Shown in pieces: positions 8,367 to 57,665 of a stretch of DNA of 64,000 bases. The notes beneath the pieces are model-generated. The model had not been told where the DNA came from. It searched no databases and worked only from the letters and a program-made list of their open reading frames with translations. This DNA is from Chrysemys picta bellii. Its lineage: Eukaryota. The position numbers were made by a program, and so were the translations under genes. Every line of letters begins with the position of its first letter. Within the stretch, counting starts at the first letter, position 1. The stretch lies in the NCBI RefSeq assembly GCF_011386835.1, contig NC_088792.1, positions 82,522,001-82,586,000 on the forward strand, in the 5' to 3' direction.

Positions 8367-8514
8367 AATAGCATGGGTTGAATTTATGTTCTGTAGAAAG
8401 TTCAGAAAAAAATTCATTTTAGAAATATCAAAATGACTCTATTGAAGTGCTTCATTTCGATATTATATTACATATTTTCAATGCAAGGGTTGAGGTAAAC
8501 CTCTGGTTGACATA

Positions 8515-9462
8515 CAGTAACTCCTCACTTAATGTTGTAGTTATGTTCCTGAAAAATGCAAATCCAATTTCCCCATAAGAATTAATGTAAATAGGGGGGA
8601 TTAGGTTCCAGGGAAATTCTTTTCACCAGAAATTTGTGTATACACATATATACACACACACACAGTATAAGTTTTAAACAAACAATTTAATACTGTACAC
8701 AGCAATGATGATTGTGAAGCTTGGTTGAGGTGGTGAAGTCAGAGGGTGGAAGAAGGTGGAATATTGCCCAGGGAATGCCTTACTGCTAAACGATGAATTA
8801 GCAGTCGGCTGAGGCCTCAAGGATTAACACATTGTTGTTAATGTAGCCTCACACTCTACAAGGCAGCACAAATGGAGGGAGGGGAGACAGCATGGCAGAC
8901 AGAGACAATGACACACACCCTGTGTAAGAGAGAGATGTGCATTGCCCCTTTAAGTACACTGACGCCACTCTAAGTACACTGCCTTTTTAAGTAGATCAGC
9001 AAGTCCAGACAGCCGCTGCTGCCAGAAAGATCCCTCCCGTGTGTGTGTCCCTCCCTGCTCTATGGAAATGAGATAAGCAGGAAGACACCCTGACATTAGC
9101 CCCCCTTCCCCCCACTTACATAGCAAGCAGAAGGCTCCTGGGAGCAGCTCCAAGGCAGAGGGCAGGAGTAGCACATGGCAGTGGGGGGAGGAACAGCTGA
9201 ACTGCTGGCAATTGATAGCCTGCTGGGCGCCTGCTGCACAGGGAACTTAGGGGAGCAGGGAGCTGATAGGGGAGCTGCCGGTCCACCCTGGTTCCAAGCC
9301 TCCACCAGCTAGCTCCAATGGGCTGCTCTTTCTGCAAGCGGTGACAAAGCAGGCAGCTGCCAAACAATGTTATAAGGGAGCATTGTGCAACTTTAAATGA
9401 GCACGTTCTTTAAGTGATCAGCAACATAACAACCCGGGACGACTTTAAGAGAGGAATTACTG
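8515..9462 (+). mobile_element. Tc1/mariner (Tigger-like) non-autonomous DNA transposon, copy 1
   Basis: TIRs cagtaactcctcacttaa / ttaagagaggaattactg with TA flanks at 8513-14 and 9463-64. Homologous over its length to 20479-21780. Confidence 0.9.
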
Positions 9463-9464
9463 TA

Positions 9465-9958
9465 ATAGCCGCCCTTCATTCAGGATAAATGTAAGAAGCA
9501 GTTAACTGAAACAACAGGAGCCACCACCCAAAACACAGGCCACAAGCAAACCCAATCAGGTGGCTAGAGGGATTTCACTGGGAATACAAATGCAGAGGCC
9601 CGGGTATTGTATTGGTGGAGTTCTGTGTGTGAGAGCAGCAGCAAGAAAACTCTTCAGGCAAACAGAGAAGGCAGCAGAAGGCAAGGACAGCCAGAGAAGC
9701 ATCTTTAACATGATCTTGAGAAAAAGCTAAGAGAGAACTTCTGGGGCAGAGTGCTGGCTGGAAAGAGGCTTGGAATATTGAACAAGAAAACTGTTTCGTG
9801 ATGTTTGATTCCTACTGTGGCCAGGGCAACTGGACTTGGCACACATTCTTTGTAAATAAACAGGATTGCATCAAAGAAATACCTGACTACATCAACAATT
9901 TCTCCTCCTAGTCGAAACAACCTGATTTGGCTAATTGCTTAGGTCAAAAAGGGTAACA
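9465..9958 (+). mobile_element. LTR 3' portion (ends ...gggtaaca)
   Basis: aataaa-like signal (gtaaataaac) and CA terminus. Shares gagaacttctggggcagagtgctggctg with the minus-strand LTR piece at 52727-53100. Confidence 0.65.
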
Positions 9959-19765: not shown

Positions 19766-20478
19766 TATCTAGTTGTTCGGTGCACCCAGGGATTGCCACA
19801 TTAGGGTCTAATTAAAGGTAAAACATGTTCAGGTAGAAAAGCTTCCTCTGACATGGACAACATATGAGTATCTGAATGAACCAAATGTTCAGCCACCAGG
19901 GAGCACTGAACTGGAGATTCTGCTTTCTACAAGAGTGTTGTGTAATGAAAATAGCACCATGACTCTATAACAATCTGAATATATTAGTATACCAAAAAAA
20001 AGTCCATCACGCCCCAAAACAGTAATTTTTTTTTATTTTGAGGCAAGTTAATATTGTATTTCTGTTCTTTTTTGTAACTTTTCTTCTGAGTAGGTTTAAA
20101 TGTTAAATTTCCCCCTGTCTGCATCAGCCATTTTCTCTGAGAAAGGAAAGAGATCAGACATTAATTGGCCCATTCTTATGAAGACAAGTGACTGAGGTTC
20201 CCCAGCAGGATACTGGATGTGATGAGGAAGCGTGGGGCTAGCTGAGGTTTCTGTCAACTTGCCTTTCAAGCAGATCTAAGAATAAACCGGAGTTGCTGCA
20301 ATTAGCCACTTATTTGCATTCGATTTAAAAGTGAGACTTCATAAATAAGTCCCATCAGCAAATGTTTATCAGAATTCCTTTTTCTGATGAGAGGCAGTTC
20401 AAGAGAATTGGGTTAGAACTTAGCTACTTTATTGCCTAATGAAATAACTGGTCATACTGTTCTGTAACTTTGCTGATA

Positions 20479-20679
20479 CAGTAACTCCTCACTTAACATT
20501 GTAGTTATGTTCCTGAAAAATGCAACTTTAAGCAAAACGATATTAAGCGAATCCAATTTCCCCAGACGAATTAATGTAAATGAGGGGGTTAGGTTCCAGG
20601 GAAATTTTTTTCACCGGACAAAAGACTATATTATATATATACACATATACATATATGTATATGTGTATATATATACATA

Positions 20680-20714
<35 letters not shown>

Positions 20715-20814
20715 TAGGTGGGGGTTAGGTTCCAGGGAAATTTTTTTCACCGGACAGAAGACTATATTATATATATACACACACATATACATATGTATAT
20801 ATATATATATACAC

Positions 20815-20852
<38 letters not shown>

Positions 20853-21780
20853 GGTGGGGGTTAGGTTCCAGGGAAATTTTTTTCACCGGACAAAAGACTA
20901 TATTATATATATACACATATACGTGTATATATATATATACACGTGTATATATATAATATAGTCTTTTGTCCGGTGAAAAAAAAATCCCTAGAACCTAACC
21001 CCCACCTAACACACACACACACACACACACATACACAGTATAAGTTTTAAACAAACAATTTAATACTGGTACACAGTGATGATGATTGTGAAGCTTAGTT
21101 GAGGTGGAGGAGTCAGAAGGTGGATATTTCCCTTACTGTTAAATGATGAACTAGCAATTGGCTGAGCCTTCAAGGGTTAACTCTCTCACTCTACAAGGCA
21201 GCAGGAATGGAGGGAGGGGAGACATCGCAGACAGAGACACACACCGTATGTGTGAGAGAGAGATGTGCATTTCCCCTTTAAGTACACTGCCTTGTTAATT
21301 AGATCAGCTTGCTGAGACCGTAGCTGCTGCAAGCTCCCTCCGTCCTGAGCCCTGGTGTGTCCCCCCTGCTCTATGGAAGATGGGTTAAGGAGGTGCAGGG
21401 GGGAGGGGGACACTCTGACATTAGTCCCCCTCTTCCTTCCCTCCCTCCCGCACAGCAAGCAGGAGTCTTGGGGAGCAGCTCCAAGGCAGAGGGCGGGAGC
21501 AGCACATGGCAGTGGGGGGAGGAACAGCTGAACTGCAGGCAGCTGCTGCACAGGGAACTTAGGGGAGCACGGAGGGCTGCCAGTCCTCCCTGGTGCCAAG
21601 CCCCCACCAGCTAGCTGCAACGGGCTGCTCTTCCTGCAAGCAGTAGACAAAGCAGGCGGCTGCCAAACTACGCGTTAGAAGGGAGCATTGCACAACTTTA
21701 AAGGAGCATGTTCCCTAATTGATCAGCAACGTAACAATGAAACAATGTTAACCAGGACGACTTTAAGTGAGGAGTTACTG
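20479..21780 (+). mobile_element. Tigger-like MITE, copy 2, with internal triplication and inversion
   Basis: Perfect 18-bp TIRs cagtaactcctcacttaa / ttaagtgaggagttactg and TA TSD (20477-78, 21781-82). Confidence 0.93.
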
Positions 21781-21903
21781 TACTATGGGACACTGATATT
21801 ATTGACCTCCATGGTGCTATGACAATTGGTCCCTGCATAGGCTCGATGGCAAAGAAGTCTCCAGTGTCTTTCAGAGAGTAAACAGACAGAGATAAACTTC
21901 TCA

Positions 21904-32221: not shown

Positions 32222-33040
32222 TGGAATCATAGAAATATAGGGCTGGAGGGGACCTAGAGAAGACATCTAGTACAGCCCCCTGCTCTGAGGGAGAACCAAG
32301 TATAACCATCCCTGCCAACTGTTTGTCTAGCCTTAAAAACCTCCAATGATGGGTATTAACTATCCTGATAGTTAGAAAGTTTCCCCTAATTTCTAACCTA
32401 AATTTCCCTGGCTATAGATTAAGGCCATTACTTCTAGTCATACCTTCAATGGACATGGAGAACAATTGATAACTGTCCTTTTTAGAATAGCCCTTAACAA
32501 ATCTGAAGACTTTATCAAGTCCCCCCAGTCTCCTTTTCTCAAGACTAAACATGCCCAGTTTTTTTAACTTTTCCTCACACGTCAGATTTCGGAAACTTTT
32601 TATCATCTTTGTTGCTCTCCAATTTGTCCACATCTTTCCTAAGAATGTGTAGTGTCCAGAACTGGACACAGTACTCAGCTGAGACCTCACCAGTACTGAC
32701 TAGAGCAGGGCAATCACCTCCCAGGCCTTACATACCACACTCCTATTAATACACCCCAGAATTATATTAGCCTTTTTCGCAACTGTATCATATTGTTGAA
32801 TCATATTCAATTTTTGATCCACTATAAACCCAGGATTCTTTCCAGAAGCACTTTCACCTAGCCAGTTATTCCCCATTTTATAGTTGTGCATTTGATTTTT
32901 CCTTCCTAAGTGTAGTTCTCTGCACTTGTCTTTATTGAATTTCATCTTGCTAATTTCAGATAGATTCTCCAATTTGTCAAGATTATTTTGAATTCTAATC
33001 CTCTCCTTCAAAGTGCTAGCAACCCCTTCCAGCCTGGTGT
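32222..33040 (-). mobile_element. CR1 LINE 3' about 0.8 kb
   Basis: ORFs ...RIQNNLDKLE...MKFNKDKCRELHLGRKN...KKANIILGCINR and ...LEKRRL.. are the CR1 ORF2 C-terminus; tail ...tttctatgattc. Confidence 0.93.
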
Positions 33041-33568
33041 CAACCTATATAAATTTTATTTTATCCATCACTCTCTAGGGGACAGAGAGTTTACCCGATT
33101 TATGTATCCTGTTTATAAAATCCTGCCCCAAAAGAGCAAAGTTAGGAATTCTGAATACACAGTCCTGTATGCAGTTGCACATGATCACACCACACAGCAG
33201 CTTTAAAGTTAGCAGTATATGGTACGAGGAGCTGCACCTTGTAAGGACATAAAAGCAGTACTCTGGGATCTGCACTAGCTTGTATGTGGAATGCAATGTG
33301 TTAATTTTCACCTATAAAGTCAGAGGGGCCAGATTTTTTAGGGGCTTAGCAACAACCATTGGGGGTTGATTTTCAAAATATCTCCGTACCCAAAACACTG
33401 AGCTCTTGGAAGATCTGGCCACTTATTTTGCTTCTAAATGGAAGATGAGCTCTTTCGAAAACCTGAGCTTGATTGTGCTTCATGGGCTCTTAAAAATATG
33501 ACTCTGTGTGTTTTGGAACCTGGTTATGAGAGAGATTGCCTCTCCCCCCATTCCATGTGCCAGTGGTG

Positions 33569-39820: not shown

Positions 39821-40980
39821 GATCAACAGACAGATCGGAGAGAGCAAGGAAACAATGAGATAATATTGGTCAGCATGATAAGCAGTGGACTGTGAACCAT
39901 TTTGGTTTCCTTTTTTGTGTTCCCCCACTGTGTGTCCCTCTGAAACTGTCAATTAGTGAGTTTCCTTAAAAACAGAGCCAACACCACTCAGACGGTCCTT
40001 CAGCGCCTTCTGCAGCTTCATGCACTTTCTACCCTGCTCATCCAACAAGCAAATGATCCAAAAATATTCCTGTCTGCAGATCTAATCATGTCTTCAGGAG
40101 GGAAGCTTTTGGATGGACTTATGGAGTGCCATGCAGTAACTTCCTCTAGCAGATTTCTTTCCCCCACCTTCCTTGAAGACATTGTCTCTTCTGTCACTGC
40201 TTGCTTCCGTTGCCCCTAGTTAAGAGTTATCCATTGACAGCAGACCACTGTCATGGGGAAATGGACTCACACTGTGATGGGGTCTTTACAATTATTTCAA
40301 TACAACAGAAGATCTTAAATGTTTTCATAATCAGCTAACGTTGCTGCATCATCCCCTACTTGTCAGATAATCCAGCACAGCTCTGCTACATAAATGGGGG
40401 ATAGGGATGAGGGAGACGAAAGGGGACTTGTTGCATAAGTTGAGTCTAAAATACTATACATACGAGTACTGAGCTCTTCTCAGAGTGAGTGGGTATGACT
40501 CGTGGCCCTTTTTTGTATCTTGTTAATTTTTTTGTGATCTTCAATTCATAAATATGCAGCTGTGTGCACATCTCTAACACTGTAGGCCTGGCTTGACATG
40601 TAATTGGATAAGGATGAGGCCTCATTTTTTGGGATGCAGGATTAGGGAGGTAAATGAATCAGCAGACTGGAAACAGAATGTCTATACCAGCTAAGATAAG
40701 GGGGAACATCCAGGGACCCGTTTACAATGGACAAGATAACAATGGATAAAAGCCTGAAATGTAAGGTGAGGCAAAGAGTAAGCCGTGCACAGACAGCGCG
40801 AGGGCAGAGCATTCTGTACAGGGATTGGTTCCCAAAACAAGTGATACAGTGTATAGTAAATGCAGTGTGTAAATTTATATAAAGGAAGAGGTCTGCTGTG
40901 TAATTTTCGATGTGTGGTATGCTACACCCATCCCCTATGCCTGAATCTGCTCAACTCAGCATAGCTTTGCAGTATGAAAG

Positions 40981-42066
40981 TGTGACGTTATTGACAAACT
41001 GTGACCGTATAGATCATTGTTGCAACCACTGTTTTATATTTGCAGCAAATATTGTACAAAGGTTGCCGTGTGAGGTGTCTATGAAAAGGTTATGATTTGC
41101 TGGTTATAATTATGCTATCTGTATGTGTGTATCATTTTTGTAGCTAAAGTTATGAATATTGGCTATGAACTTGTATCCCAATGTGTTTGATTCTAAGTAG
41201 CATTAATGACGCATTTGGTCATCTCTTGAGAAAGGAATTTGTGGATTAAGTGCCCAATCAAGAAACACTTAACTGACAATGGACTTTGGGAAATGTTCAA
41301 GGTAGCATGTGAGCAATGGCTGCCACCTGCAAATTGAATCATGCATGGACCTGTGACTTGCCCAGGTGGCTACAGACTCCATCTTGTTCCTGTGATTTTG
41401 CACAGCAGAACAAAGGGGTTTCCGCCCACAGGAGAAAAAATATAAAAGCCCTGGAAACCTCTCCATTTTGTCTTCAGTCCTGCTTCTTACTTCTGGAGGA
41501 ATCTTGCTACAAACTGAAGCTCTGAACAAAGGACTGAATGACCCATCCAAGCTCTGGATGTACTCCAGAGACTTGATTTGAACCTGCAGTTTATTCCATC
41601 ACAACTACAAGCCTGAACCAAGAACTTTGCCATTACTGTATGCAATTGGTTTCAGTTAACCAGTTTTAACTCTCACCTATATTTCTTTATTTTTATAAAT
41701 AAACCTTTAGATTTTAGATTCTAAAGGATTGGCAACAGCGTGATTTATGGGTAAAATCTGACTTGTATATTGACCTGGGTCTGGGGCTTGGACCTTTGGG
41801 ATCGGGAGAACCTTTTTTCTTTTACTGGGGTATTGGTTTTCATAACCATTCGTCCCCATAACGAGTGGCACTGCTGGTGATACTGGGAAACTGGAGTGTC
41901 TAAGGGAATTGTTTGTATAACTTATGGTTAGCCAGTGGTGTGAGACCAAAGTCCTGTTTGGCTGGTTTCGTGTGCCTTAATAGCAAAGGAAACCCAGCCT
42001 TGGACTGTAACTGCCCTGCTCTAAGCAATTTGTCCTGAATTGATACTCTCAGTTGTGTCCCGCCAA
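40981..42066 (+). mobile_element. Second (Gypsy-type) solo LTR nested in the provirus 5' LTR
   Basis: Starts tgtgacgttattgac, carries tataaaag (about 41440) and aataaa (about 41698), and has a 3' end apparently clipped at ...tgtcccgcca. It separates the U3/R and U5 halves of the host LTR. Confidence 0.7.
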
Positions 42067-42138
42067 GTGCCAACACTGGAGTTGAATTGAGTTCTTAGGG
42101 AACAGAGTGGAAGAGGTCTCGGGGACACCCCAACATAG

Positions 42139-42156
42139 CAGTGCCGTGACTCGGTT
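42139..42156 (+). promoter_or_regulatory. Primer-binding site complementary to the tRNA-His 3' end
   Basis: caGTGCCGTGACTCGGtT versus TGGTGCCGTGACTCGGAT (15/18, 14-nt perfect core), a few nt after the LTR CA. Confidence 0.85.
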
Positions 42157-42259
42157 GCCATTCATCTGGAGCAGGTAAAGTAAACTCAGTGACACGCCCA
42201 GAGTAAGCCCAGGAACCACTCATCTGGAATAGGTAAAGTGTGCACCCTTTTGAGTGTGA

Positions 42260-43238
42260 GGGCAGCTACCTAATAGTAAGGGAAATGGCATTGGAAAGAT
42301 TTAAGGGTTTAACTATGAGAAAGTTAGCACCATGATGGAGAAATGGGTTAAACCTGAGGGTGAACCCTATGGACTCCCTAGAGAAGTATTAGGGGGAGAT
42401 TGGGAGTAGGTAAAGAAGGAACTCCAGAGAGATATTAGATTTTTTTTAAAAGATTGCTTTGCAAAGCAAGGCAAAAGTCTGTTAAATGCCATAAATAAAT
42501 AAATTATTGGCAGAGCACAGCAAATATCTGTTAAATGCCACTGAAGTTTTAAAAAAACAGGACCCATGGCAGCCATGAAAAAAATAGTATCTATTTTTAT
42601 CTGAGGGCAAAGAAAGCCCAAATCATTGAAGCAGTTTCAGAAGAATTATTCCTTGTGGCGGAAATGTTACAAACAGAATGTGCCACCTTAAGGAATGAAT
42701 GCAAAAAGCATAAAAAGAAAATCAAAGTTGTAGAAAAAAAAACAATGAAACAAATTCCTGTAAGGTCGGAAAGAAAACAATGACTGTTACCTGTTCGCAT
42801 AAATCCAAAGTAAAAAGCAGCCATCCTTTAAGGACTGTATTTAGTGAGTACAGCTTTTCAGGCAAAGTATATACATTTAAAAATAAGTGCAAAACCCATA
42901 AAAAAAAATCAGTATAAAGCCACCAAAAAAAAAAAGTGGGCTAAAAATATGTTATTCTGAAAAATAAAATAAAGCTACAGTTCCCAAAGTCAGTAGCTAG
43001 TAAGGTCTTTAAAAGTGTCTTATACAACAATGAAACACTAACGTAGGTAATCTTAAAGAGGTGCATCCAGTTAAAAAAAAAACTTGCACAAATTAACACT
43101 GCAAAGCTCAGAAGGGACTAAATAGTCACGGGTATTAAAAGTAATAAAGCATTAAAAGAGTGTTTAAAAAAAGAACACTTGGTTTAATAATAAAACCCAG
43201 TTATGGCAGTATAACTTGGTGCCATTATCCCTGGGGAA
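42260..43238 (+). pseudogene. Disrupted gag-like ORF of the provirus
   Basis: Segments translate GQLPNSK...YEKVSTMMEKWVKPEGEPYGLPREVLGGDWE*VKKELQRD...LLNAINK*IIG; ...AQIIEAVSEELFLVAEMLQTECATLRNECKKHKK (coiled-coil-like); ...ETLT*VILKRCIQLKKKLAQINTAKLRRD*IVTG. The position just after the PBS is where gag lies. Confidence 0.6.
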
Positions 43239-44720
43239 ACTGGAGTTGAACTGAGTTCTTGGGGCACCAAGTGGAAGAGGTCTTGGGGGAACCCCAACAA
43301 ACACCACCAGTAATTAATTCACTAAGGAGAGAGAGAGAGAGAGAGATGAGCACAATGGAGCCCCATTTCTTGGTTGGTCCCTAGACCTGTAATAAACATG
43401 ATTAAAATATGTGCCATGGGATTATCAGAAGCTATCCTCTGTTTTTGTGTCACCAAATCGCAAGTGCAAATAATGGCTGATGTAATTTTGTACACCCAAT
43501 TTAGGTAACTTGGACATTTAAGTATTAATTTGGGTCCACGAATCAGGCATTTAGATGTCCAGGTAATCTAAACTGTCCCTATAATCATTTGCACCTGCAA
43601 TCTGTGGGTGTGAAGATAAAAGTCTTTGAATACATCCTGGCTGAAAAATTGGCCCTATATGCTAAGCTATTTACATTTACTCATGCTGTGTATCTCTGTG
43701 TTTTTCCTGGGCCTATTTGGTCTGTTTTGACCTTGGAAGTAGAAAGAAACCGTGACATTTAAGAAAATTCAATGTAACAGGGATCTGCTGTACAGTGTAT
43801 CCAGCAAGCATCCTCTGAGAAATCCTACCTTTTATGCTACTAAAAGGCTACTGCTTAAAAAAATGGTACAAATCAAGAAGATTTACAAATAATTTATGCA
43901 GAAACACTGGCAGAGGTTTCTGTGTAAATTATGCATATTTTTTATTCATTAAATCACTTTTTTCCCTCCTATACATATTACCCAAGTTGTCATCTCTTAT
44001 TCACATACTACAGGATGCACAATTCAAATAAAGAAGGCAAACTTATACAGTGTATGTAAGAGAGGGTGGTATTTACATTTGCTGTCTGAATATTTATTAA
44101 CAGACAACACATTTCAGATGCATTTTTACAGAGTAGTTTGTTTTGACAAGCTTATTGCTAGAATGTTTATTTGTTCTCCTCTTGCTGAACATCGTGAAGG
44201 TAGCACGCTAACTGAATGTACAGTAGGTATCTCAGAAAGAACCAACAAAGACCCCACTTCACTGGGTGCACTATCCTGGTTTTGATAACTGAGACATGAG
44301 GGGAAACTGCAGCACTTACAGATGAAAGAAAAGGGACACAGAGAAGACCCCTCTCATCATCTCTTTTTCTTCTTTATCTCCTTACTTTTTACTCTTTCTT
44401 CTCTCCCCTTCTTATATGCTTGTAACCTTATCTTCTAAGTTTGGAGAGTTCTCCTCCAATCTCAAGTCTGAGGGGAAAGGTACCCTTTTTGAAGGGGAAA
44501 GGATGGCAAGGAGAAAGGAGTCAAATGGTGAAAGAAGAGAATCTCCATCTCATGCCTTCGTTTTCTCTAGCATCTCATTCCTTCTCAGAAGGATGAAGGA
44601 AAGAAAAAGAGTAGCCCAGTGATTAGGGGCACTAACCTAAGACTTGTGAGATCTGTGTTCAAGTCCTTTCTCTGCCATGGATTTCCTATGTAACCTTGGG
44701 CAATTCACTTAGTCTCTCTG

Positions 44721-54850: not shown

Positions 54851-56012
54851 AGCAGAGCACCAAATCTTCTTCTACTTCATATAGGCATCTGCAGTGTCTC
54901 AGTTCCTTAACCCTGTACAAAAACTTAAAATGAAAGGTGGGCACAACATAAAAAAAATATGAAGGCACACAGTAAATTCTCTGCTCCCTTCACATATAAT
55001 CAACAGCTGTAACCCAATTAATCTGCAGTTCATAGAAGACTTCAACACAAAAGTACACTGCTCTTTAGACACAGCTGCGCATCCAGCTCTACCTGGAATC
55101 TTCAGAAAACCAACAATGATACAATGAAACAAAATAAAATCAACCCACATCAGCTGTAACCCAGTTATGTGAAGAACAGCACATGGTTGTTGATAAAGGA
55201 ATAGCAGATACACAAATATATCTATGGAACAATTTTGTGCAGACTTTTGGGATTTTAGCACAGCAATAAAATATTTCTACATGTAAAATTATCAGTTAAT
55301 CAACATGACAATTTCTCTGGTTCTCAGTTTTGTCTTCCAGACAATAAACTCATGACTACCCACAAATTAACTGTTGACTCCCAACCAACAGAAAATACCG
55401 ACAGCTCTCTGAAACCAGGAAGTGGGAAACACACTTTTCTTTTCTTACGGGTGTGCCTTTTGGTTGCCAACATTAAAGTCTCCTAGAACAATATTTCTAT
55501 AACTCCAGAGTAGGTGAAAGAAAAAGTTCTCCATTTTAATAAACTCACATAATTGAGACAACTGTACTTTGTGACCCTGAGGCCACACAGACTAACCACC
55601 ATCTGTCAGACAATTGAAATCAATGGGAACAGGCCATAGTTGCTTCATATCAACATCATCACTGATGATTTCTAAAATGTAAAATCTTCAGCATATTTAT
55701 ATTTATGTGGTCTGTGGGTGAATGTGCTTCATTTTAAATACTTCAGTTAGACAGCTTATTGTATTCCTATTTGTAATGTTTACATTTGGCATGCCTCCAT
55801 TTGGATGGCAAGGTAATAATCAGAGCCAAATGTGAATGGCTTTTTATGACTGAATTCATCCATAAAGCTCTTTTATATGCATACTGTAGTATTCGGGGGG
55901 GGGGGGGGAACTGCCTTAGAAAGTCAGGAAATCACTGTGTTAAGATTACACACAACCCTAACTCAAACCACTGTTGTATGTGCATTACAATACAGCCTCT
56001 GATGACTAAAAT

Positions 56013-57665
56013 TAGGGCTGTCGATTAATCACAGTTAACTCACGTGATTAACTCAAAAAAATTAATCGCAATTAATCGCACTGTCAAAGAATAGAATACC
56101 AATTGAAATTTGTTAAATATTTTTGGATGTTTTTCTACATTTTCAAATATATTGATTTCTATTACAACACAGAATACAAAGTGTACAGAGCTCGATATTT
56201 TTTATTACAAATATATGTACGGTAAAAATGATAAGCAAAAGAAATAGTATTTTTCAATTCACCTTATACAAGTACTGTTATCGTGAAAGTGTAATTTACA
56301 AAGTAGGATTTTTTTTTGTTACACTAATTGCACTCCAAAACAAAACAGTGTAGAATGTTAGAGCTTACAAGTCCACTCAGTCCTACTTCTTGTTCAGCCA
56401 ATCGCTAAGACAAACAAATTTGTTTACATTTATGGGAGATATTGCTGCCTGCTTCTTATTTATAATGTCACCAGAAAGTGAGAACAGGCGTTCGCATGAC
56501 ACTTTTGTAGCCAGCATGGCAAGGTATTTACGTGCCAGCTATGCTAAACATTTGTATGCCCCTTCATGCTTTGGCCACCGTTCCAGAGGACATGCTTCCA
56601 TGCTGATGATGCTTGTTAAAAAATAATGCATTAATTAAATTTGTGACTGAACTCCTTGAGGGAGAATAGTATGTCTCCTGTTCGGTTTTACCCGCATTCT
56701 GCCATACATTTCATGTTATAGAAGTCTCGGATGATGACCCAGGACATGTTGTTCGTTTTAAGAACACTTTCACAGCAAATCTGACAAAACGCAAAGAAGG
56801 TACCAATGTAGGATTTCTAAAAATAGCTACAGCATTTGACCCAAGGTTTAAGAATCTGAAGTGCTGCCCAAAATCAGAGGGACGAGGTGTGGAGCATGCT
56901 TCCAGACGTCTTAAAAGAGCAACACTCTGATGCGGAAACTACAGAACCCAAACCACCAAAAAAGAAAAAGAACCTTCTGCTGGTGGCATCTGACTCAGAC
57001 GATGAAAATGAACATGTCGGTCCGCTCTGCTTTGGATCGTTATTGAGCAGAACCCATCATCAGCATGGACGCATGTCCCCTGGAATGGTGGTTGAAGCAT
57101 GAAGGGACATATGAATCTTTAGCGGATCTGGCACGTAAATATCTTGCGACGCTGGCTACAACAGTGCCATGCAAATGTCTGTTTTCACTTTCAGGTGACA
57201 TTGTAAACAAGAAGCAGGCATTATCTCCTGCAAATTGTAACCAAACTTGTTTGTCTGAGCGATTGGCTGAAGTAGGACTGAGTGGACTTGTAGATTTTAC
57301 ATTGTTTTATTTTTGAATGCAGTTATTTTTTGTACATAATTCTACATTTGTAAGTTCAACTTTCATGATAAAGAGATTGCACTACAGTACTTGTATTAGG
57401 TGAATTGAAAAATACTATTTCTTTTCTTTTTTTACAGTGCAAATATTTGTAATTAAAAATAAATATAAAGTGAGCATTATATACTTTGTATTCTCTGTTG
57501 TAATTGAAATCAACGCATTTTAAAATGTAGAAACCACCCAAAAATATTTAAATAAATGGTATTCTTATTGTTTAACAACACGATTAATCACACGATTAAT
57601 CGCAATTAATTTTTTTAACCATGTGATTAATCACGATTAATTTTTTTAATCGCTTGACAGCCCTA
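56013..57665 (+). mobile_element. hAT transposon deletion derivative retaining the transposase C-terminus
   Basis: TIRs tagggctgtcgattaa / ttaatcgcttgacagcccta; subterminal gattaa/ttaatc repeats; ORF 57065 CPLEWWLKHEGTYESLADLARKYLATLATTVPCKCLFSLSG is the hATC dimerisation domain. Confidence 0.93.

Follow-up and report, generated by a model that had tools for sequence, protein, structure and literature searches.

An old, broken LTR element in the genome of the painted turtle, Chrysemys picta bellii, carries GA>AA changes that are very probably the scar of a turtle deaminase acting at 5′-TC in the minus-strand cDNA during reverse transcription. The element lies in a stretch of 64,000 nucleotides of contig NC_088792.1 (positions 82,522,001 to 82,586,000; hereafter the window, whose own numbering is used for the element), and a preliminary description, made from the letters alone, had presented it as a single edited provirus. 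The editing is largely supported and is not peculiar to this provirus: the bias extends over 61 copies of the family, and the focal copy, which ranks 4th among 39 in its GA>AA load, is typical of the heavily edited minority of its family and not unique.

The focal stretch is the 5′ end of the element, which spans 40581-43299, is bounded by identical 5-bp duplications and retains about 1.08 kb of internal sequence. Its features are as follows (o/e, observed over expected).

40576..40580, + strand: left target-site duplication AACAC, identical to 43300-43304
40581..40976, + strand: first part of the 5′ LTR, starting with TG; 63-84% to sister 5′ and 3′ LTRs, GA o/e 0.86
40982..42064, + strand: solo LTR from another and younger family, inside the 5′ LTR; its final ~18 bp apparently lost
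42065..42135, + strand: last part of the 5′ LTR, ending with CA; 87% repeat of 43239-43299
42139..42157, + strand: primer-binding site (PBS), assigned from its sequence; most of 11 sister copies shown have a motif like it after their LTR
42141..43222, + strand: leader and broken 5′ ORF with graded GA>AA changes; gag by position only
42553..42780, + strand: 76 aa of the 5′ ORF that contain no stop, rich in Lys/Glu and by eye resembling a coiled coil
43223..43238, + strand: deletion junction; lost here are ~3.2 kb of the interior, envelope remnant included, and the greater part of the 3′ LTR
43239..43299, + strand: 61-bp end of the 3′ LTR, a repeat of the 5′ LTR end; GA o/e 1.09
43300..43304, + strand: right target-site duplication AACAC, identical to 40576..40580

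In sister copies, whose LTRs measure ~480 bp and whose interiors reach ~4.3 kb, the piece at 42065-42135 is colinear with the first LTR part, and the deletion was deduced from the longer sister copies, which run on for ~4.3 kb between their LTRs. The primer-binding site is one that we take to be of the His-tRNA type. The 5′ ORF is interrupted by numerous stops in all three frames. Its 76-aa piece shows 45-46% identity to pieces from three sister copies, an Atlas search with this piece gave no usable match, and no Pfam family was found in 15 frames of the focal stretch and four sister copies with the stops read as X. Hence, the frame that had been called gag-like deserves the name by its position and not by any Pfam or Atlas match.

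By direct count, A amounts to 32% in 42141-42440, 42% in 42441-42840 and 47% in 42841-43200, and GA occurs at 30 of 88, 21 of 71 and 8 of 56 G residues (o/e 1.07, 0.70 and 0.31, respectively), with GG seen 11 times in the last segment (o/e 1.27). The base, GA and GG counts of the preliminary description were thus reproduced exactly. Base shuffles of 42841-43200 contained 26.1 ± 3.4 GA, and none of 20,000 was as low as the 8 found; for 42441-42840, the observed count was matched or undercut in 226 of 20,000. When the 1053 N-free 360-bp segments of the window were scored, an A content of at least 44% together with a GA o/e of at most 0.4 was met in two, both within 42141-43200, and the mirror pattern on the opposite strand in none. 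As had been noted, GA is retained in the LTR-end repeats (o/e 1.17 in 42065-42135 and 1.09 in 43239-43299). Public contigs from four organisms span 42838-43316 wholly or for the greater part, with 0, 5, 4 and 3 differences, the contigs with 0 differences covering the full span, so that an assembly artefact is ruled out and the A-rich state is real and predates the split of these organisms. Over 42841-43200, five lightly changed sister copies have 37-42% A and a GA o/e of 0.72-0.98. The 29 sister matches contain 35-42% A. Since the lightly changed copies are already this rich in A, the A-richness of the focal copy is mostly family composition; its loss of GA, unlike most of its A-richness, is not. 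The reported A-rich, GA-poor signature is therefore kept for GA and largely given up for A. Several A runs lie inside the focal stretch.

The changes in the focal copy were polarised by reading its state at trinucleotides on which a pair of other copies agrees, CpG contexts being left out; the reference copies were lightly loaded ones, picked after the loads had been seen. With the first reference pair, GA>AA was found from 5′ to 3′ at 1 of 8, 6 of 11 and 15 of 19 sites (trend p 0.0015), and C>T at 4 of 17, 1 of 31 and 1 of 16. A second, disjoint pair gave 0/12, 4/11 and 5/8 (trend p 0.0021) and a third 1/11, 5/12 and 9/11 (trend p 0.0006), so that the proposed course, low near the PBS and rising 3′-ward, was repeated. 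Compared with L032 and L046, the focal copy has changed at 23 of 42 GA, 9 of 84 other G, 3 of 16 TC and 3 of 49 other C sites. GA was separated from other G in four of five reference pairs (p 4e-7 to 0.02), and the fifth showed no contrast (5/20 versus 6/34, p 0.73); GA against TC alone was significant in one of the five, because TC sites are few. Thus the Hypermut-style context check against paralogous copies, pairwise and three-way, found sisters that are not equally GA-poor, and differences that are strand-asymmetric with CpG contexts excluded. The reading of three stops (AINK*IIG, ETLT*VIL and LRRD*IVT) as lost Trp codons did not survive, as, out of 29 sister copies, 14, 18 and 18 likewise have a stop at these three places and 0, 1 and 0 have TGG. 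Taking all frames together, 73 focal stop triplets were scored: for 52, half or more of the other copies also have a stop, and for 6 the commonest triplet in the other copies is TGG.

Searches for family copies scored 40 of 102 candidates in one case and 40 of 104 in another; L191 was dropped as the second piece of the L168 copy. Pooled rates are weighted fractions, bootstrapped over copies and not over sites. In 61 copies, GA>AA reached 0.228 against 0.089 for the mirror change TC>TT, a ratio of 2.57 (bootstrap 2.15-3.15) that is also 2.57 outside A runs. The bias is thus on one strand and favours GA: the ratios to the mirror are 1.81 for GG and 1.10 for GY, so that the GA>AA context of the preliminary description holds, accompanied by a weaker excess of GG>AG. 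No bias was seen at GYW, the AID hotspot (WRC on the opposite strand), where the ratio is 1.10 (0.96-1.26), and the transversion control CA>AA was 0.035 against a mirror of 0.033. A copy set retrieved with a 3′-region query (29 copies, partly the same elements) gave 0.182 versus 0.078. Copies lying in either direction on the chromosome show the bias, with 0.214 and 0.300 versus 0.099 and 0.098.

Along the element, the load is low towards the PBS and the LTR is spared. The LTR of the focal family shows 0.130 versus a mirror of 0.117 (ratio 1.11 overall), its last third being asymmetric (ratio 2.01); in the internal bins GA>AA climbs from 0.167 to 0.29-0.39, and in the final ~1.2 kb before the polypurine tract (PPT) it drops to 0.133, 0.201 and 0.113, with no peak there, the 3′ copies behind this drop having been retrieved with a lightly changed query. 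The last bin, which held too few copies, was left out of the profile. The load of a copy is correlated along its length (rho 0.63, n=35; 0.59, n=27). Of the 61 copies, 42 contain runs of at least five G>A mismatches (205 pairs) and 31 contain such runs of C>T (71 pairs); the focal copy has runs of at least five of both kinds, and this test is weak at ~23% divergence. In eight LTR pairs, a GA change was shared by both LTRs at 0.047 versus 0.018 expected, with all classes in excess (A>G 0.019 versus 0.004); one pair, L050, has a p-distance of 0.39 and is probably mispaired. L169 and L183 are copies cut down to an LTR, a piece of envelope and an LTR, and the load of L183 (0.53) is the highest of its copy set.

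The younger solo-LTR family inserted in the 5′ LTR, of which 40 members were scored among 7732 candidates (top matches 82-89%) by their likeness to the window copy at 40982-42064, is ~11% divergent and gave a GA>AA ratio of 1.68 (1.26-2.23), strongest in its last third (2.45). A supposed internal region beside one such solo LTR turned out to be host flank with other repeats. Because this family, chosen at first as a negative control, is mildly biased itself, two further repeats of the window were added as controls, with the query copies not used as targets.

8512-9469 and 20476-21784: two copies of a ~1 kb DNA transposon with short inverted ends of the TA...CAGTAACTCCTC type
32225-33059, - strand: CR1 LINE fragment

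Both control families were symmetric, with GA>AA ratios of 0.85 (0.56-1.31) for the DNA transposon and 0.87 (0.65-1.18) for CR1, each over 24 target copies. Another repeat of the window, at 56005-57665, has nested, long inverted arms that reach 166 bp (85%), occurs at several other loci and is probably a non-autonomous DNA transposon.

A second scar is found in a younger retrovirus-like family that carries reverse transcriptase (RT), integrase and a similar envelope. In its copy L297 (C13:22089240-22099239), a three-way test gave GA>AA at 25 of 77 sites versus TC>TT at 2 of 69, with GG at 3 of 68; L297 was significant in this test and the other five of the six copies were not. Relative to L298, L297 shows 54 of 130 GA>AA versus 4 of 111 in the mirror (p 3e-13), distributed with a peak directly before the PPT (13 of 24 just 5′ of the LTR), a drop to 3 of 20 at the LTR start and a renewed rise to 9 of 15 later in the LTR. 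Overall, G>A outnumbers A>G by 84 to 20 against L298, and G>A dominates against each of the four relatives. A related group of five copies is symmetric over env (0.076 versus 0.090). The RT piece of the younger family scores 66-74 bits with foamy/MLV RT and 44-45 bits with Ty3; its RT_RNaseH match is strong, and a second RNase_H match, which was not seen in the focal family, is weak (E 0.02). The polymerases of the two families share 29% identity over one remnant. At L293-L312, the painted turtle genome holds at least two further families with remnants of an F-type envelope: in one, RT is closer to foamy/MLV than to Ty3, with a possible second RNase H, and the other has a ~300-bp piece in common with the focal 5′ ORF, followed closely by a piece resembling an integrase end and by env.

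Before APOBEC enzymes were known, G>A hypermutation in HIV was attributed to mispairing at low dCTP. Applied to the turtle, reverse-transcriptase errors of this kind (G:T mispairing and slippage at GA) would need no deaminase, would favour GA and would predict both the same strand and unequal loads per molecule. We nevertheless regard them as improbable, since they account neither for the low load behind the PBS and where the LTR begins nor for the peak of L297 before the PPT, and since the same context recurs in two families with different polymerases (29% identical). The L297 profile, moreover, tracks the single-stranded lifetime as in PMC1635257, which argues against such errors and for a deaminase.

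Considerably less probable still is a subfamily composition, by which the copies would owe their high A and low GA to one source element or a few. The whole family is indeed A-rich (35-42% A in the 29 matches), and site sharing, although near independence, slightly exceeds the independent model (sd 0.143 versus 0.128 simulated, range 0.117-0.132). A tree built on transversions only is nevertheless a star, with terminal branches of 0.0515, internal ones of 0.0031 and 2 of 35 with UFBoot of at least 95. The loads are spread continuously from 0.06 to 0.55, and their heterogeneity is large (chi2 343 on 38 df, against 67.5 on 37 df for the somewhat overdispersed mirror TC); residual r exceeded 0.5 in 1 of 708 copy pairs. 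The star tree and the very unequal loads indicate that each copy was hit separately, and inheritance within a subfamily is largely refuted by the tree, the continuous loads and the near-independent sites.

We give hardly any credence to a reversed polarity, in which some copies gained G from A by ADAR-type RNA editing and the focal copy kept the ancestral A. AA>GA is mildly above its mirror (0.04-0.10 versus 0.02-0.05), as this reading would have it, but unrelated, lightly loaded copies agree on G in three disjoint pairs on a star tree, the six focal stop triplets lie where TGG is commonest elsewhere, and L297 differs from its four relatives mainly by G>A; an outgroup check on polarity is partly supplied by the younger family. 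Equally far-fetched is ordinary decay after insertion, through CpG loss, growth of A runs or an asymmetry of transcription or replication: the copies are ~23% divergent, with strong CpG decay (0.36-0.64 in most bins) and several A runs, but the bias persists with CpG excluded, its ratio does not change when A runs are left out, no asymmetry is seen among transversions into A, the bias tracks the element strand in both chromosome orientations, and CR1 and the DNA transposon are symmetric, so that the mirror, orientation and control tests exclude A-run slippage, CpG decay and host-strand asymmetry. Transcription exposes the coding strand and would produce C>T there, which is opposite in sign to what was observed.

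The target of the editing was characterised from the longer copies. A profile of natural pieces from their 3′ part finds env-like proteins of shark and frog (E 2e-22), the shark protein matches 29 of the 61 family copies, and by Atlas features it lies near the Fusion_gly/Baculo_F clusters (0.93). The link to F proteins is an indirect one: the PF00523 profile found no match in the whole genome, its controls being silent too; a word-indexed protein search, PDB and Pfam with env pieces gave nothing useful, and a PDB search with the shark/frog env alignment returned no F protein. Most family copies are without pol; L066 holds a remnant of RT/RNase H, with colinear DNA in L308. Judged by its sequence, the focal family carries a remnant of an F-type, lokiretrovirus-like envelope, and it would fit the highly degraded lokiretrovirus copies of turtles described by Wang and Han (PMC7947760). 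Both are LTR elements whose Env is related to the F glycoprotein of Mononegavirales; in lokiretroviruses the LTRs flank gag, pol and env (PMC7947760), whereas in the focal family LTRs, a target-site duplication and an env remnant were identified and gag is unrecognised. Two further marks of lokiretroviruses are an RT that groups in trees as sister to retroviruses and a tether with a second RNase H.

The copies of the focal family are ~23% divergent, and seven of the eight LTR pairs differ by 0.13-0.25. At a substitution rate of ~1e-9, the family would be ~125 million years old. PMC4299795 cites 3.9e-10 for crocodilians, which would put the age above 300 million years, implausibly old; no turtle substitution rate was found in PMC7955980. 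From the divergence, the family is probably more than 100 million years old.

As for the enzyme, eight APOBEC1-like catalytic exons, seven of them stop-free, stand in tandem over ~160 kb (C1:136.73-136.89 Mb), adjoining AID. Pfam ranked SNAD4 over APOBEC1 in four of the eight, and for one exon the nearest relatives by name are turtle APOBEC1 or turtle deaminases given no specific name. Together with AID the cluster covers C1:136728880-136901451 (L070-L074, L076-L079, L081 and L082), and its loop sequences vary. The genome also has APOBEC2-like and APOBEC4-like genes and one decayed deaminase; L080 (C1:257520017-257520421) is a decayed AID/APOBEC-like gene with four stops that scores best on the APOBEC2/NAD1 models. 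AID is unlikely to be the editor because its GYW hotspot is without bias, and, granted a deaminase, the enzyme was probably of the APOBEC1 type. The editing by a turtle cytidine deaminase put forward in the preliminary description thus finds support, with AID dropped from its candidates. A cytidine deaminase, probably encoded in the APOBEC1 cluster next to AID, would meet the minus-strand cDNA while this is single-stranded and convert C to U at 5′-TC, which would appear as GA>AA on the coding strand only, and the edited copy would then integrate in the germ line. We infer from these data the timing at reverse transcription, the action in the germ line and a defensive role.

Antiviral DNA editing would thereby be extended to turtles, with an editor footprint of 5′-TC, and more weakly CC, that is not AID's; the seven stop-free APOBEC1-like exons make a non-mammalian stand-in for APOBEC3 directly testable. 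The target would be an old lineage, retrovirus-like and equipped with an F-type envelope, and its scar may date the defence far back. Edits in turtle LTR families also inflate estimates of divergence and base composition. A bolder proposal, about which we are more doubtful than confident, is that the tandem APOBEC1 cluster is a convergent counterpart of the APOBEC3 locus and that the lokiretrovirus-like fossils record a Mesozoic, TC-specific attack that reached the majority of a family's copies and predates APOBEC3; if true, these would be among the oldest datable antiviral DNA-editing scars, and the defence would persist into younger turtle retrovirus families.

Editing scars are already known from mammals, birds, opossum, alligator and Anolis, so that deaminase restriction without APOBEC3, offered at first as a surprise, is less of one. 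Knisbacher and Levanon (PMC4866542) reported APOBEC editing of LTR elements also in opossum and birds, which lack APOBEC3. Their elements resemble the turtle family in the excess of sense G>A over C>T, in having a context preference and in the sparing of DNA transposons; outside mammals, their positives were 3 of 15 birds, and the preferred context is GG in songbirds but GA in the turtle family. The painted turtle was in their screen, with 0.03 in the last column of the supplement, which we read as the percentage of LTR (chicken 1.31), and their cluster filter, which needs close pairs, is poorly suited to a family that is ~23% divergent. In bioRxiv 10.64898/2025.12.03.692250, G>A changes in reptile LTR elements are assigned to APOBEC1, with 22,417 sites in alligator and 11,872 in Anolis, and up to six A1 copies are given for turtles, compared with the eight exons found here; multiple turtle APOBEC1 copies also appear in PMC5889660. 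The main text of that preprint, as far as accessible, holds no turtle editing count, context or gradient, and its supplements may hold more. No passage on context preference was found in PMC5399452, and no report of turtle editing in the literature searched, which left subscription papers mostly outside its scope. The turtle host, the GA context and the lokiretrovirus-like target seem to be new. Lindic et al. (PMC3880073) described lizard APOBEC1 as a DNA mutator that restricts retroelements; editing there was in L1 and not in LTR elements or CR1, whereas in the turtle an LTR family was hit and CR1 shows no strand bias. In HIV-1, Suspene et al. (PMC1635257) described APOBEC3F/3G gradients with a minimum after the PBS. 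HIV-1 and the turtle are alike in the preference for GA over GG, as expected of TC-preferring enzymes, in this minimum, in the lightly edited LTR and in the smooth spread of loads, and the peak of L297 before the PPT matches the HIV-1 pattern; unlike HIV-1, the turtle case involves no APOBEC3, and the profile of the focal family is hump-shaped, declining ahead of the 3′ PPT.
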